A stretch of DNA of 52,288 bases from Escherichia phage vB_EcoM_Bp10, in sequence record MN122072; one strand, 5' to 3'. Below are positions 28,257-45,662 of the stretch, one piece after another. The notes beneath the pieces were generated by a model, which saw only the letters and a program-made list of their open reading frames with translations, did not search any database and was not told the DNA's origin. The position numbers were made by a program, and so were the translations under genes. Position 1 is the first letter of the stretch; every line of letters starts with the position of its first letter.

Positions 28257-28598
28257 ATGGAACGATTATCCATTCAGATGTTTGTGGACCTGATGCACCA
28301 ATACGGCGTATGGCACGGGCTATTGGCTGGTCTGACGGCCTTAATCCGTGGGGCATATGAAAGTGAAGGCTTAAGCAAGGCGCTGCTAGATGCGGCGCTG
28401 TGCAGCTTAATCGGCTTGTTTGCCTTTCATGTTGCTGGCACATTTGAAACCTTCACGACTAACGTCACTATGCAGTTAGTATTGGCTATCGTGATTGGTG
28501 TCATCGGTGCAAACCTCATTATCACAACTGTCAGGGAAAGTTTCTCTGGCGCAATCAAACAACTTAACCCTTTAACGTGGTTCAAGAAGGCACGATGA
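28257..28598 (+). CDS. holin (lambda S-like, three TM segments)
   Basis: Three hydrophobic segments and a charged C-terminus; LIRGAYESEGLSKALLDAALCSLIGLFAF resembles lambda S; directly upstream of a lysin. Start at ATG 28257; ORF track starts at 28182. Confidence 0.65.
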   Translation: MERLSIQMFVDLMHQYGVWHGLLAGLTALIRGAYESEGLSKALLDAALCSLIGLFAFHVAGTFETFTTNVTMQLVLAIVIGVIGANLIITTVRESFSGAIKQLNPLTWFKKAR

Positions 28599-28615
28599 AA
28601 TGATAAGGAACTCGA

Positions 28616-29170
28616 ATGCTATCATTCAAAGTTCTTGCACTTCTGACAGCTCTAGTTCACATCAACGCCCCAGCTTCGGTTGGGGCAGTGAATTCTGCTA
28701 TTACAGATTTTGCAAGTCATTCTTATTTAAATGGAAGTCTGAAACTATCTTCTTCACAACGCAAAGAGCTAGAATGCTACACTAAAGTTATCTGGTATGA
28801 AGCTCGCGGAGAAGACAAACATGGAAAGATTCTGGTAGCTAATGTCGTCCGTAATAGAACCAAGTTCGGGAAGCCATTCGCTAACACCGTTTGTGATGTT
28901 GTCTATCAACGCAATCAATTTGCATGGACAAGAGAAGCAAAGAAGAAGAATGCTCAATGGAAGCATGTAGCAAAGATTAATTATGCCACAGAACAACAAC
29001 AAGTTCTGGACACCATTAATGTTGCAATCTCTTTTGTATTATTTAATCAACCCTCTGTCACCAAAGCAACCCACTTTTGTACAGCATCGGAGAAGTGCAA
29101 CTTCAAGAATGTCAAAGGTTTGGGACGTTACGGTGGCCACAAATTCTATGAGTATCTAGGAAATCTGTAA
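28616..29170 (+). CDS. secreted cell-wall hydrolase, SleB/CwlJ family (endolysin candidate)
   Basis: N-terminal signal-like [24 protein letters not shown]; core VIWYEARGE...VVRNR...QFAW matches the Hydrolase_2 signature. Confidence 0.7.
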
Positions 29171-30270
29171 TGGCTTACACTACCTTTTCACAAACCAAGA
29201 ATAACCAACTACTAGAGCCAATGTTCTTTGGTCAGAACGTTAACGTTGCTCGATATGACCAACAGAAGTATAGCATCTTCGAGAAGTTAATCGAAAAGCA
29301 GTTATCTTTCTTTTGGCGACCTGAAGAGGTTGATGTTAGCCAGGACCGAATTGACTATGCTGGTCTACCTGAATGCGAGAAGCACATCTTCACCAGCAAT
29401 TTACGATACCAAATCCTGCTTGATTCCATTCAGGGACGTGGACCAACCACAGTTTTGCTACCAATTGTGAGCATTCCTGAGCTGGAAACTTGGATTGAAA
29501 CTTGGTCATTCTCAGAAACAATTCACTCCCGCTCTTACACGCATATTATTCGTAATATTGTTACAGACCCGAGCGTAATTTTCGACGAAATTGTAGAGAA
29601 TGAGCACATTAAAATGCGTGCAATCGGCATCTCCCAATATTATGACGAGCTTCAACATCTAACTTCCATGTGGCATCTGCATGAAGATAAAGTTTCTCTT
29701 CGTGAGCTTAAGAAGAAGCTGTATTTATGCCTCATGTCCATTAATGCACTGGAAGCAATTCGCTTTTATGTCAGTTTTGCTTGCTCATTTGCCTTCGCTG
29801 AACGCAAGTTAATGGAAGGAAATGCCAAGATTATTCGCCTAATTGCTCGTGATGAAGCACTCCATTTGACTGGAACTCAACACATGCTGAACCTTCTTGC
29901 AAGCGGTGTTGACGACCCAGAAATGGCAGAAATTGCTAAAGAATGTCGCCAAGAATGCCAACTCATGTTCGAAAATGTGGCCCAACAAGAGAAAGATTGG
30001 GCTGATTATTTGTTCAAAGATGGCTCAATGATTGGCTTAAACAAGCAAATTCTGTGCGGATATGTGGAATATATCACGAATATTCGTATGCAAGCGGTTG
30101 GATTGGATGCTCCATTCAAAGGTGCTACTAACCCGATTCCTTGGATTAACGCATGGTTGAATTCGGATGCTGTACAAGTTGCTCCACAAGAAACGGAGAT
30201 TAGTTCGTACCTTGTCGGACAAATTGACTCCGAAGTTGACACCAATGCTCTGGGCGGATTTGAGTTGTAA
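29170..30270 (+). CDS. nrdB: ribonucleotide reductase class Ia beta subunit
   Basis: [11 protein letters not shown]...[18 protein letters not shown]...[16 protein letters not shown]...[13 protein letters not shown]; di-iron ligands and C-terminal tail present. Confidence 0.9.
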
Positions 30271-30569
30271 CGATTATATGTGAGAAGAGATTCGATGCGT
30301 TAGCGTCGTTTCTCTTTGAGCTAGAATAAAACAAGTAAATTAAATATTTATTTATTCCCAATATTGCTACAATATTAAGAGTAATATTAGGAATGCGTAA
30401 AGTTAAAACCAAATGGTACATGGTCGGTCAACTGTACCTGGATAGTAATTCGTTCACGGTCAGTCAGCTGTATCTCCTTCGGAGAAGTTATCTCGCCGAA
30501 ATTTGTTCGAATGGAAAACCGACTATTAAATAATTTTTTTTTATAATTTTTTTTTTATTTTCAATATTG

Positions 30570-30660
30570 CTACAGAATTAATGAGACTCAAATTGTTTCA
30601 ATATTATCGAGACTCGAATTGTTACGATATTAATGAGACTAGAATTGTGGCAATTGCTCA
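30570..30660 (+). repeat. three tandem copies of an approximately 27-bp unit (TAATGAGACTCAAATTGTT-like)
   Basis: gaattaatgagactcaaattgtttc / atcgagactcgaattgttacg / ttaatgagactagaattgtggc, consecutive, about 300 bp upstream of the RNA polymerase gene. Confidence 0.5.
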
Positions 30661-30903
30661 CTTCGCTCGCTTTATATTATAATTTTTTATTTTTTGGGAC
30701 GGCGAGGAGGGGGAAGTTGTGACATTATTTTTTTAAAATTTTTATCTCCGAGGAGGGGAAGCCCAACGTCCTATCGGACTTAAATACGGTCCCTACTCCA
30801 ACTTTTTCCTACAGCCTATCGGCTTTCAAACAACACCAAGATAGGCGCTTCGCTTATAAGTCAAGGTCAAAGGCAATCAGAGTACGCTGTTGTAACGTGC
30901 TAG

Positions 30904-30927
30904 TCTCACCATTAGTTGGTTGTGATT
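30904..30927 (+). promoter_or_regulatory. copy of conserved motif, candidate phage promoter
   Basis: tctcaccATTAGTTGGtTGTGatt, about 60 bp upstream of the RNA polymerase start. Confidence 0.4.
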
Positions 30928-30987
30928 ATGAATAGGCTACGCAAGTCTAATCCGTTTCAGTTAAATCATAATCAATTGGAGACTATC

Positions 30988-44002: not shown

Positions 44003-44383
44003 GTTGCCGATGGCAAACTTGAGAGACTAAGCTAAATCGATCTGGCATGCACTGGAAGTTTTCCGGTGCTGCCTTGAACCCATTCCAGAGTGAGTGGGCT
44101 TCAATTTGTACATAATCCAAACACCATTGCATGAGCCTTCGACGGGAGGCAATGTTGGGAAATTTGTTGTGTACAAATTGAAGTAGTTTTCTGAGTCTTA
44201 CGACGGGCCTAAACTGCCTGGAGTTATTGCGACTGTTTTATTCATTTAAAATAAATGCAAATGATTCTGAAATGCGAGTTGCGGCTTAATTAAATTTAAG
44301 TCCTCTCCGTGGTCTTCCAATCCCACGTAACCAAATTTGGCGCATTGTGGCTTCGAGATGTGATTAATAAATCGGAGCAATAA

Positions 44384-44580
44384 TTAATTTGTATTCTGCG
44401 ATGCAACGCAGGCTTAAGTCCCTCAGTGCGCGTGGGGATGTGACAGAGTACAAACTTAATTACTAATTTGTATTCTGGTGTTGTTCGCCAAGATTGGTGC
44501 ACTCATGATTGGTAGTGTTGGAGAGCGCGGAGCCTAAAATATTATCTGGCATCTCCTACCAGAGTACAAACTTAATTATG
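44384..44580 (+). repeat. inverted and direct repeats of an 18-bp unit TAATTAATTTGTATTCTG, including a 36-bp imperfect palindrome at 44444-44478
   Basis: taattaatttgtattctg at 44388 and about 44463; reverse-complement form cagagtacaaacttaatta at 44444 and about 44560; related TTTGTTGTGTACAAATTG palindrome near 44160. Confidence 0.45.
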
Positions 44581-45019
44581 CAGTTGGATATTTCTAGAGG
44601 ACGGACGAGCACACTGGAATGTCTTCAATTGGTTTAGTGTGAGAAGCTATGGCAATTTGAAACGTAACTCCTTGGGGAAGTGCTCCTCTGGATTTCCCTC
44701 CACACAGGAATCTCAAGCCTGTGGCAGCGACTTCGAAGCTGCACTGCGTAACCTAAATTCACCCTAAAGTGAGTTGCCCTGAGTATGGAAATAAACTGCT
44801 CATAACCGATGGTATCTACAAAGGTAGATTAAATCAGGTTGCCTGTTGGTACTTGGGTTCAACACCTGCTTGCACTCGCAAAGTAGTGCCTCGTACCTGA
44901 GATGAAGTGAGTCGGGACCATCAATCCCACGTTATGCCAAAACATAGTAGGCGGCTCACAGATTCTACAAGCCTCGCAGTTCGGGAAAACCTGCGTTATC
45001 AAAACCCCCTTTTTTATTT

Positions 45020-45113
45020 GGACGAGTAGCTCAGAAGGTTTGCATTGTGCTCAGTCAGGTAGAGCAATCTGTTCGACAGATGTGTCGTTGGTTCGAATCC
45101 AACCTCGTCCACC
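45020..45113 (+). tRNA. tRNA-like gene, non-canonical (duplicated D-arm 5' segment, 5-nt anticodon loop)
   Basis: GGACGAG (45020-26) pairs with CTCGTCC (45104-10); T-arm GTTGG-TTCGAAT-CCAAC (45087-103); canonical D-arm GCTCAGTCAGGTAGAGC (45049-65) preceded by an extra TAGCTCAGAAGG; anticodon stem ATCTG/CAGAT has a 5-nt loop. Confidence 0.35.
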
Positions 45114-45143
45114 CACTTTAATAATAGCAATACTGGAGTCCTT

Positions 45144-45284
45144 ATGGATTTTGATGCACTTGATAATTTAGACTTCGGTGCTGCCGAAGAAGCAATTGAA
45201 GAACTTAAGAAGAAGCAGGACGAAGAAGCAATCGTTCCTGGTGAGGGCGATAACGACTGCTCAAGTGGTGCGTGCGCCATCTAA
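45144..45284 (+). CDS. 46-aa acidic peptide ending CSSGACAI (not in ORF track)
   Basis: GGAG 5-6 nt upstream of ATG 45144; MDFDALDNLDFGAAEEAIEELKKKQDEEAIVPGEGDNDCSSGACAI; directly upstream of the spanin-like pair. Confidence 0.35.
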   Translation: MDFDALDNLDFGAAEEAIEELKKKQDEEAIVPGEGDNDCSSGACAI

Positions 45285-45292
45285 GGTGATTT

Positions 45293-45529
45293 ATGCAACA
45301 GCTTAAATCAATAGTTCTTGGCGTCCTGACTGCATTTGGTATTCTTATTGCAGTGTTCCTCAAAGGCAAAAGCTCAGGCAAAGCCGAGGAGCGTCAGGAA
45401 GCCAAAGAGAAGCAACTGGATTCATTAAAAGAATCTATCGAGATTAAATCGCATGTTCAGAAAGAAGTGTCTAGCAGTTCTGATAGCAATGTCGATAGTG
45501 AGTTGCTCTCAAAGTGGGTTCGTAAGTGA
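45293..45529 (+). CDS. i-spanin-like protein (N-terminal TM plus charged domain)
   Basis: TM segment IVLGVLTAFGILIAVFL followed by a charged, Ser-rich domain; overlaps a lipoprotein ORF in another frame. Confidence 0.5.
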   Translation: MQQLKSIVLGVLTAFGILIAVFLKGKSSGKAEERQEAKEKQLDSLKESIEIKSHVQKEVSSSSDSNVDSELLSKWVRK

Positions 45530-45662
45530 TTACTGCATGATTGCACAACCAATCTATTTGGATGTTGCAGAAGTGAAAGTTTTATCACGCGAAACCAAAA
45601 CACAGATTCTAGTCCACAATGAAACGTGGGCACAAAAGTGTTCGAAACTTACCCGACAGTGA
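45453..45662 (+). CDS. o-spanin-like outer-membrane lipoprotein
   Basis: Signal peptide with lipobox-like IVSC; two further Cys; start embedded in the 3' end of the i-spanin-like ORF. Confidence 0.5.
   Translation: MFRKKCLAVLIAMSIVSCSQSGFVSDYCMIAQPIYLDVAEVKVLSRETKTQILVHNETWAQKCSKLTRQ

Follow-up and report, generated by a model that had tools for sequence, protein, structure and literature searches.

Several descriptions of Carltongylesvirus phages bear on the lysis genes considered here. Table 2 of the ST32 paper lists ORF24 as an endolysin, ORF77 as a holin and ORF78 as an endolysin; in EcoM1 the corresponding positions carry annotations for a holin/anti-holin, a pair of endolysins and an Rz-like spanin; and the 2023 SKA49 paper describes the same layout: a holin, two wall hydrolases divided between two modules, and a spanin located far away. 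The DNA analysed here is the 52,288-bp sequence of Escherichia phage vB_EcoM_Bp10 (MN122072; hereafter the window), which carries genes for a holin, an exported SleB-like hydrolase, an M15 peptidase and a pair of spanins (Table 1). A megablast search with positions 28000–46000 matched 64 phage records, with Escherichia phage EcoM1 as the best match (92% identity over 91% of the query), followed by ST32, Bp7, MLP1 and relatives; all belong to Carltongylesvirus (Chaseviridae, Cleopatravirinae), as does the window. The same five genes are found in phiEcoM-GJ1, ST32, SKA49 and EcoM1, in the same order and relative positions and with 80–100% protein identity, and apart from a 132-aa variant of the M15 peptidase nothing substantive separates this locus from those of ST32 and EcoM1. 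The gene inventory and the two-lysin layout are already known from GenBank and the SKA49 paper. The question raised is why unrelated coliphage groups (Chaseviridae, T5-like phages and Phapecoctavirus) retain a Sec-exported SleB-like hydrolase beside a conventional endolysin and, related to this, how a soluble periplasmic muralytic enzyme stays harmless before holin triggering; an answer would refine the paradigm of Gram-negative lysis and could guide the design of two-enzyme lysin cocktails.

Our reading, to which we give a probability of about 0.6, is that the five genes constitute a complete Gram-negative lysis system with two endolysins that cut different bonds and that both act at the end of infection. 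The M15 L-Ala-D-Glu endopeptidase would be made, probably earlier than the holin and hydrolase, with the block of genes for the single-stranded DNA-binding protein (SSB) and an anti-restriction protein and, judging from its sequence, would accumulate harmlessly in the cytoplasm, while the i-spanin would be inserted in the inner membrane and the lipoprotein o-spanin in the outer membrane. The holin and the SleB-like hydrolase would be expressed from genes that close the late tail-fibre block, and the hydrolase, exported by Sec through an apparently cleavable signal peptide, would wait in the periplasm and cut glycan strands. Holin triggering would collapse the membrane potential and open holes through which the peptidase reaches the wall; peptide stems and glycan strands would be cut together, and the spanins would then fuse the inner with the outer membrane. 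Piercing the wall at entry would be a different task, falling to the tape measure in the virion through its SLT domain. The analysis shows the gene content, the family memberships, the conserved catalytic residues, the predicted topologies and the conservation of the enzyme pair in the family, whereas the timing, the enzymatic activities and the restraint of the exported enzyme before triggering are inferred. We favour both wall enzymes as lysis enzymes because their genes co-occur, a CHAP protein replaces the peptidase in Suwonvirus, the two genes adjoin in Nefertitivirinae, T5 has a comparable pair, an SLT domain is present in the virion tape measure, and the lysins are unlisted among the virion proteins of the relative 4HA13.

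Table 1. Positions of the lysis genes and associated features in the window.
Feature	Position	Strand	Assignment and context
SLT lytic-transglycosylase domain (aa 1061–1152)	18772–19047	+	Pfam PF01464, 3.1e-13; in the 1241-aa tape-measure-position protein (15592–19317)
Holin, 113 aa	28257–28598	+	lambda S family (class I-like); 7 nt after the tail fibre gene (27212–28249)
Putative exported SleB-like (Hydrolase_2) peptidoglycan hydrolase, 184 aa	28616–29170	+	PF07486, phrog_938
Predicted signal peptide of the SleB-like hydrolase (residues 1 to ~24)	28616 to ~28687	+	leader pattern
Terminator-like hairpin	30293–30308	+	after nrdB; ~20 nt downstream of the conventional start (~30271)
Motif AACATTAGTTGGAT, candidate phage-RNA polymerase promoter	37539–37556	+	heads the packed block SSB, M15 peptidase, anti-restriction gene
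Predicted cytoplasmic M15C-type L-alanyl-D-glutamate endopeptidase, 132 aa	39925–40323	+	T5 EndoT5 family; SSB/anti-restriction block
Motif AACATTAGTTGGAT, candidate promoter	43565–43582	+	heads the block with a tRNA and the spanin pair
i-spanin, 78 aa	45293–45529	+	phrog_1026 'Rz-like spanin', 3.3e-20; N-terminal transmembrane segment, charged helical periplasmic part
o-spanin, 69 aa	45453–45662	+	phrog_1275 'Rz-like spanin', 3.3e-18; predicted outer-membrane lipoprotein precursor

The holin matches Pfam Phage_holin_3_1 (PF05106; 6.8e-08, 33.3 bits versus a gathering cut-off of 23.8), the holin/anti-holin family phrog_126 (1.2e-17) and, by BLASTP, lambda S itself (E = 6e-7 over aa 22–94), and the homologous gene is annotated as holin in ST32 and as holin/anti-holin in EcoM1. 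Strongly hydrophobic segments lie at about aa 38–64 and 64–94, a weaker Gly/Ala-rich one at about aa 17–33 falls below the Kyte–Doolittle threshold used, and the C-terminus is basic (KKAR). By family assignment the predicted holin type is that of lambda S, whose holes would admit a 15-kDa cytoplasmic peptidase. A dual-start holin/antiholin arrangement (starts at M1 and M8) was considered and dropped, the N-terminal extension having no net positive charge. As in the lambda S/R/Rz-Rz1 system, an S-family holin is combined with a holin-dependent cytoplasmic endolysin and a two-component spanin whose o-spanin gene overlaps that of its partner. Unlike in lambda, the genes do not form one cassette, the endolysin is a peptidase rather than a transglycosylase, an extra exported hydrolase is present, and the spanin genes are overlapped rather than embedded, with a short i-spanin.

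The hydrolase matches Pfam Hydrolase_2 (8.8e-16, 58.8 bits versus a cut-off of 27) and phrog_938 (4e-20). An AlphaFold model (pLDDT 85.8, pTM 0.81) has the catalytic domains of SleB, 4fet and 4f55, as its sole structural matches (probability 1.00, TM-score 0.62–0.68 normalised to the target), and Y-E62-A-R-G-E of the phage protein aligns with G-E-S-R-G-E of Bacillus cereus SleB. The Glu of this E-x-R-G-E motif, located at the start of the domain, is what we take to be the catalytic residue, as in SleB. Residues E62, R64, G65 and E66 are invariant across 29 hydrolase homologues; besides the Glu, about 40 positions in all do not vary.

The N-terminus of the hydrolase has the n-h-c layout of a signal peptide: MLSFK is followed by the hydrophobic stretch VLALLTALV and by 10 more residues, with Val as the first residue after the predicted cleavage site. 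Among the 29 homologues the leader sequence varies while the pattern stays, consisting of a basic residue, a hydrophobic core of 9–13 aa (median 11), a polar stretch of Asn, His, Gln or Pro, and a small-x-small site (for example SVGA/V, ALA/S and VVA/S, the slash marking the site); the whole uncharged stretch measures 17–40 aa. The anchor of a signal-arrest-release (SAR) endolysin is an uncleaved, weakly hydrophobic helix of about 18–22 aa, and the cores of 9–13 aa found here compare with 20 uninterrupted residues in P1 Lyz and R21. Textbook cleavable leaders are also found in the distant homologues T5.083 (...SSQA/S), ZPAH140 (...KAEA/T) and Spp001 (...PAQA/A), and residues 1–19 of the AlphaFold model have a pLDDT below 50. 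Judged on these leader features, the odds are roughly two to one for a cleavable Sec signal over an SAR anchor, to which the uncharged stretch of 17–40 aa leaves some probability. The phage shares with the SAR/pinholin systems (P1 Lyz, phage 21 R21, phiKMV) the predicted Sec export of a muralytic enzyme before holin triggering, and differs from SAR endolysins in its short core, its polar, Pro-containing c-region with a small-x-small site, and its SleB fold, which is not T4-lysozyme-like. A literature search pairing SleB with SAR endolysin found no such report. Caging by a disulfide as in P1 Lyz was rejected, the leader in this phage being without Cys. A second lytic enzyme, exported by the transport system of the host, is also reported for the virulent Kayvirus myoviruses, whose Tgl is a secreted lytic transglycosylase-like protein additional to the main endolysin; it differs from the hydrolase here in its Gram-positive host, its enzyme family and its position, which is not next to a holin gene.

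The peptidase belongs to a different fold. It matches Pfam Peptidase_M15_4 (PF13539; 2.3e-09) and phrog_465 (5e-55), and among PDB sequences 8q2g (3.6e-23), T5 EndoT5 (2mxz; 7.7e-20) and ChiX (5opz; 1.6e-17). When aligned to these homologues, the zinc and catalytic residues are intact in SRH64MSGNALD71 (H-x6-D) and D124APH127 (D-x2-H), and they are kept in the EcoM1 variant. Neither a hydrophobic segment nor a signal sequence was found in the M15 peptidase. Its start overlaps the upstream open reading frame (ORF) by 8 nt. A second holin cassette was sought beside the gene; no neighbour encodes a membrane protein, and the sole matches were spurious out-of-frame ORFs. In the M15C literature the phiEcoM-GJ1, ST32 and 4HA13 proteins are aligned as orthologues of EndoT5. 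These results uphold the original prediction on two points: a holin and a signal-peptide SleB-like hydrolase lie together at 28257–29170, as supported by PF05106, PF07486 and the leader pattern, with an M15 peptidase standing alone (PF13539, phrog_465), and the two lysins are unrelated, one SleB-like in fold and the other an M15C peptidase of the EndoT5 type.

We note that the M15 gene is mosaic, with residues 1–85 near-identical to those of EcoM1 and ST32 and a divergent C-terminal third that distinguishes the 132-aa variant (the Bp7/Mangalitsa/MLP1 type, present here) from the 138-aa variant (the ST32/EcoM1 type). This mosaicism fits the recombination breakpoint reported for SKA49.

The i-spanin has a single transmembrane segment at aa 7–25, IVLGVLTAFGILIAVFLKG, with Kyte–Doolittle values of 2.35–2.88, followed by a short periplasmic part of about 53 aa, and is homologous to the annotated spanin of phage PP101. 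The o-spanin, MFRKKCLAVLIAMSIVSC, contains the lipobox I-V-S-C18 (MFRKKCLAVLIAMSIVS/C18) and matches orf34 of PP101 by tblastn (9e-14). Its gene begins within the i-spanin gene in another frame and ends past it, which is the overlapped architecture; the corresponding pair of phiEcoM-GJ1 was counted in a spanin census of 2018. The spanin topology presumed in the original prediction thus holds for both proteins, one having a transmembrane segment and the other a lipobox.

The predicted SLT domain in the tape measure was likewise found, and the tape measure protein has been detected in virions of 4HA13 with 64–67% coverage; this domain is likely to be the wall-piercing enzyme for DNA entry. It bears directly on the division of labour between lysis and another step that the original prediction suggested, taken here to mean that one of the two small lysins acts outside lysis, for example as a virion-associated enzyme of cell entry. 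T4 (gp5 versus e) and PRD1 do split entry and exit between two enzymes, which gives the idea a precedent, and the CHAP protein that replaces the peptidase in some relatives (see below) has the PHROG label 'baseplate hub subunit and tail lysozyme'. In this phage, however, an SLT domain is already present in the tape measure, a protein detected in 4HA13 virions, neither small lysin appears in the 4HA13 virion list (15 proteins, each with at least 50% coverage), both lysins are small, single-domain proteins without a virion-attachment domain, and a Sec signal on the hydrolase is incompatible with packaging in the cytoplasm. Together with the Nefertitivirinae gene order, the Suwonvirus CHAP protein and the lambda-S-like holin, these points make such a role for either enzyme highly improbable. 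As a separate observation, the tape-measure-position protein contains a full-length YqaJ-like domain (PD-(D/E)XK recombination exonuclease; aa 468–604, 16993–17403, Pfam 4.3e-13), whose PHROG matches are RecE-like exonucleases; a nuclease-type domain in a virion tape measure is unusual.

Homologues of the two wall enzymes are distributed alike. Hydrolase_2 homologues were found in 79 records (E ≤ 1e-20) and M15 homologues in 81 (E ≤ 1e-35), with equal numbers of records for the two enzymes among phages of Escherichia (36/36), Erwinia (22/22), Yersinia (8/8) and Pantoea (2/2), and both genes are present in every record that could be checked in both homologue listings. Five Pectobacterium/Dickeya records (Suwonvirus) have the hydrolase and lack the M15 peptidase; in one of these phages, PP101, a local tblastn search of the whole genome found no M15 homologue. 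The syntenic slot of PP101, 5' of the anti-restriction gene, holds instead a 158-aa CHAP protein. It shares 56% identity with a single-domain CHAP endolysin of experimentally demonstrated activity, LysPM2 of Proteus phage PM-CJR, whose catalytic C47, H96 and N115 recur at the same positions; members of this CHAP family adjoin holin or Rz genes in other phages. Because M15 is replaced by CHAP in Suwonvirus, the slot appears to keep a soluble endolysin while the fold changes. The lysozyme-like endolysin of Pantoea phage PA1 was also considered; it resembles the endolysins of Pantoea phage Kyle and of Escherichia phages of the ECML-117 type and is uninformative for this genus.

The contents of this slot also bear on a different explanation, in which the holin, the SleB-like protein (SAR or secreted) and the spanins are the whole lysis module and the M15 or CHAP protein has another main job, such as T7-like regulation of RNA polymerase (RNAP) or cleavage of wall precursors in the cytoplasm. 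T7 provides the model: the amidase gp3.5 is a class II product that also regulates RNAP, the holin gp17.5 and the spanins gp18.5/18.7 are class III products, and gp16 brings an SLT domain into the virion. The present phage resembles T7 in its single-subunit, T7-like RNAP, in a wall hydrolase gene among those for DNA metabolism, in a holin gene at the end of the late genes and in a virion SLT domain for entry, and its M15 gene lies among early/middle DNA-metabolism genes behind a candidate phage promoter. It differs in that T7 is not known to have an exported second hydrolase and its spanin genes are late genes adjoining the holin gene, and of the two phages T7 alone is known to regulate its RNAP through a lysozyme. 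In the PP101 paper, in turn, the group as a whole is described as having a 'holin-SAR endolysin' lysis module. What makes this explanation quite unlikely in our view is that unrelated peptidase folds, two or three in number (M15C, CHAP and, in the sister subfamily, M15A), occupy the slot, so that its conserved property would be wall cleavage rather than a specific protein–protein contact; moreover, all M15 zinc and catalytic residues are intact, the holin is lambda-S-like and not a member of a pinholin family, and in Nefertitivirinae the peptidase gene stands inside the terminal lysis cassette.

The Nefertitivirinae cassettes examined were those of Shewanella phage Spp001 and Aeromonas phages pAh6.2TG and ZPAH140; the pair is matched in a further 25 or so records. 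The genes run from tail fibre through a single-transmembrane coiled-coil protein (128–137 aa), a small protein (56–65 aa), an M15A/M15_3 peptidase and Hydrolase_2 to RNAP; the M15A peptidase, without signal, thus adjoins a signal-peptide Hydrolase_2 protein. The Spp001 peptidase, Spp64, is cited as experimentally lytic.

The same two enzyme families are found in T5 and T5-like Demerecviridae, where an M15C enzyme without signal and a Hydrolase_2 protein with a Sec signal are encoded in one genome by dispersed genes. The two layouts mirror each other. The neighbour of the holin gene is the M15C gene in T5 and the SleB-like gene here, and the respective other gene is remote. The T5 protein, T5.083 (AY543070, 42290–42739), is a 149-aa SleB-like protein annotated as 'conserved hypothetical protein', with the leader MKAALLLVAALTFSFSSQA/S, and nearly all T5-like phages hold a protein of this type alongside the M15C endolysin. 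A 2024 paper noted the pairing in T5-like phages and left open which of the two is used. In Phapecoctavirus phages a Hydrolase_2 protein is found on top of a lysozyme-type endolysin.

These comparisons supply the main arguments for a further alternative, namely that the M15 peptidase is the sole true endolysin, as in T5 and RB49, and that the SleB-like protein is a periplasmic accessory dispensable for lysis, used for example in wall remodelling or superinfection protection. The M15C family is biochemically proven as endolysin, with the proteins of phiEcoM-GJ1, ST32 and 4HA13 among its aligned orthologues; the gene of T5.083, a protein with a signal peptide, is an early-region gene that follows early promoters and is widely separated from holin-lys; Phapecoctavirus adds its Hydrolase_2 protein to an enzyme of another type; and a cleavable signal without restraint is more easily reconciled with a non-lytic enzyme. 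We nevertheless regard the alternative as unlikely, given that in every Chaseviridae neighbourhood examined the hydrolase gene lies beside the holin gene or lysis cassette, where the late block ends, and that the catalytic Glu and about 40 other positions of the hydrolase are invariant.

Several points weigh against a lysis system with two endolysins. The holin is called a pinholin in the SKA49 paper, and if it is one the M15 peptidase could not leave the cytoplasm; the label lacks support from the family assignment, and topology alone would be compatible with either type. Database records and two papers label the hydrolase an SAR endolysin and its module 'holin-SAR endolysin', which alone would be enough for lysis. 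If the leader is cleaved, something must hold the periplasmic enzyme harmless until the holin fires, since a soluble active muralytic enzyme in the periplasm should lyse the cell early; the model has to assume such a restraint. T5.083 is located in the early region of T5, a long way from the lysis genes, which is a hint that the family may act outside lysis. Moreover, the absence of both lysins from the 4HA13 list is weak evidence because the list is limited to proteins with at least 50% coverage, and a literature search found no experiment on either wall enzyme of this genus.

One form of restraint is suggested by the partners of the hydrolase. Throughout Chaseviridae and the T5-like phages the hydrolase is paired with an enzyme that cuts peptide bonds (M15C, M15A or CHAP), in no case with a glycosidase, which suggests complementary or sequential action. 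SleB-type spore enzymes act solely on muramic acid without a peptide stem; SleB itself is a lytic transglycosylase with a dependence on muramic-delta-lactam. By analogy, the two phage enzymes might form an obligate two-step pair, in which the SleB-like enzyme is inert on peptide-bearing peptidoglycan and cuts glycan solely after the stems are trimmed by the M15 or CHAP enzyme that the holin has released. We hold this idea to be tentative and rather doubtful. Such a dependence on stem trimming would account for an enzyme that can be exported harmlessly behind a cleavable leader and for the early-region position of the T5.083 gene; the pairing of Hydrolase_2 with a lysozyme-type enzyme in Phapecoctavirus counts against it. 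If true, it would amount to a control of secreted endolysins by substrate priming, distinct from SAR tethering and common to Chaseviridae and T5-like phages.

Dispersed lysis genes are normal in virulent phages such as T4 and T7. The window, all genes of which are on the plus strand, corresponds in length to the whole genome (~52.3 kb), and many related records have their first base at about window position 30271, directly 3' of nrdB (29170–30270). According to the virus taxonomy committee ICTV, the genomes of these phages are linear and have terminal redundancy, the repeats measuring about 3 kb, and in the relative 4HA13 the terminal repeat is 3120 bp. From the full genome length, the start of the related records and these linear genomes with terminal repeats, we infer that the window is a circular rotation of the genome. 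On the conventional map the M15 gene lies at ~9.66 kb, the spanin genes at ~15.0 kb and the holin and hydrolase genes at ~50.3 kb, in agreement with Bp7 (9875 and 50296). The claim that the lysis functions are dispersed over 17 kb consequently stands as far as the separation of the loci is concerned; the span itself results in part from the rotation, since the interval crosses the conventional genome ends.

The baseplate/tail-fibre block closes with the holin and hydrolase genes. At 29168–29172 the hydrolase stop codon overlaps the start of nrdB, which encodes the beta subunit of ribonucleotide reductase; a gene of nucleotide metabolism thus seems to be coupled to the final late gene at the right genome end. 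The late block, with the genes for tail fibre, holin and hydrolase and with nrdB, ends at the hairpin after nrdB. Scans for sigma-70 promoters and terminators gave no enrichment over shuffled sequences and were used solely for this hairpin. An 18-nt motif, CTGAAACATTAGTTGGAT, occurs in 7 copies versus 0.36 expected, all intergenic and on the plus strand (19345, 33421, 37539, 41456, 41597, 43565 and 51675). EcoM1 and Ecp_YSF have conserved copies at syntenic positions, as has PP101 for a single copy. The repeated motif is a candidate phage-RNAP promoter; the ICTV profile states that promoters of Chaseviridae are not yet identified. Because the peptidase and spanin genes lie in motif-headed blocks and the holin and hydrolase genes at the end of the late block, the former are probably expressed before the latter.

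Other features lie near these elements. Just 5' of the motif copy at 37539 is an 80-aa early-region ORF (37261–37503) with a strongly hydrophobic N-terminal segment (Kyte–Doolittle 3.27), which would encode a membrane protein. Just 5' of the spanin genes, ARAGORN predicts a 97-nt tRNA-Leu(CAG) at 45019–45115, unlike the tRNA-Arg that relatives annotate at the matching site (71 nt in Ecp_YSF). At the conventional genome start, an A/T-rich non-coding stretch (30341–30654) contains a 37-nt unit (ATTGNTNCA.TATTAATGAGACTC.AATTG) three times with a spacing of 26 bp, as well as a 38-nt repeat 203 bp apart; these repeats may be a terminal-repeat boundary, an origin or host-promoter elements. Finally, the GenBank record PP952070.1, 'Staphylococcus phage Pel53' with Staphylococcus hyicus as host, is ~88% identical over 84% of the query, and its host label is probably wrong because the record carries the same Gram-negative lysis genes, including the spanins.

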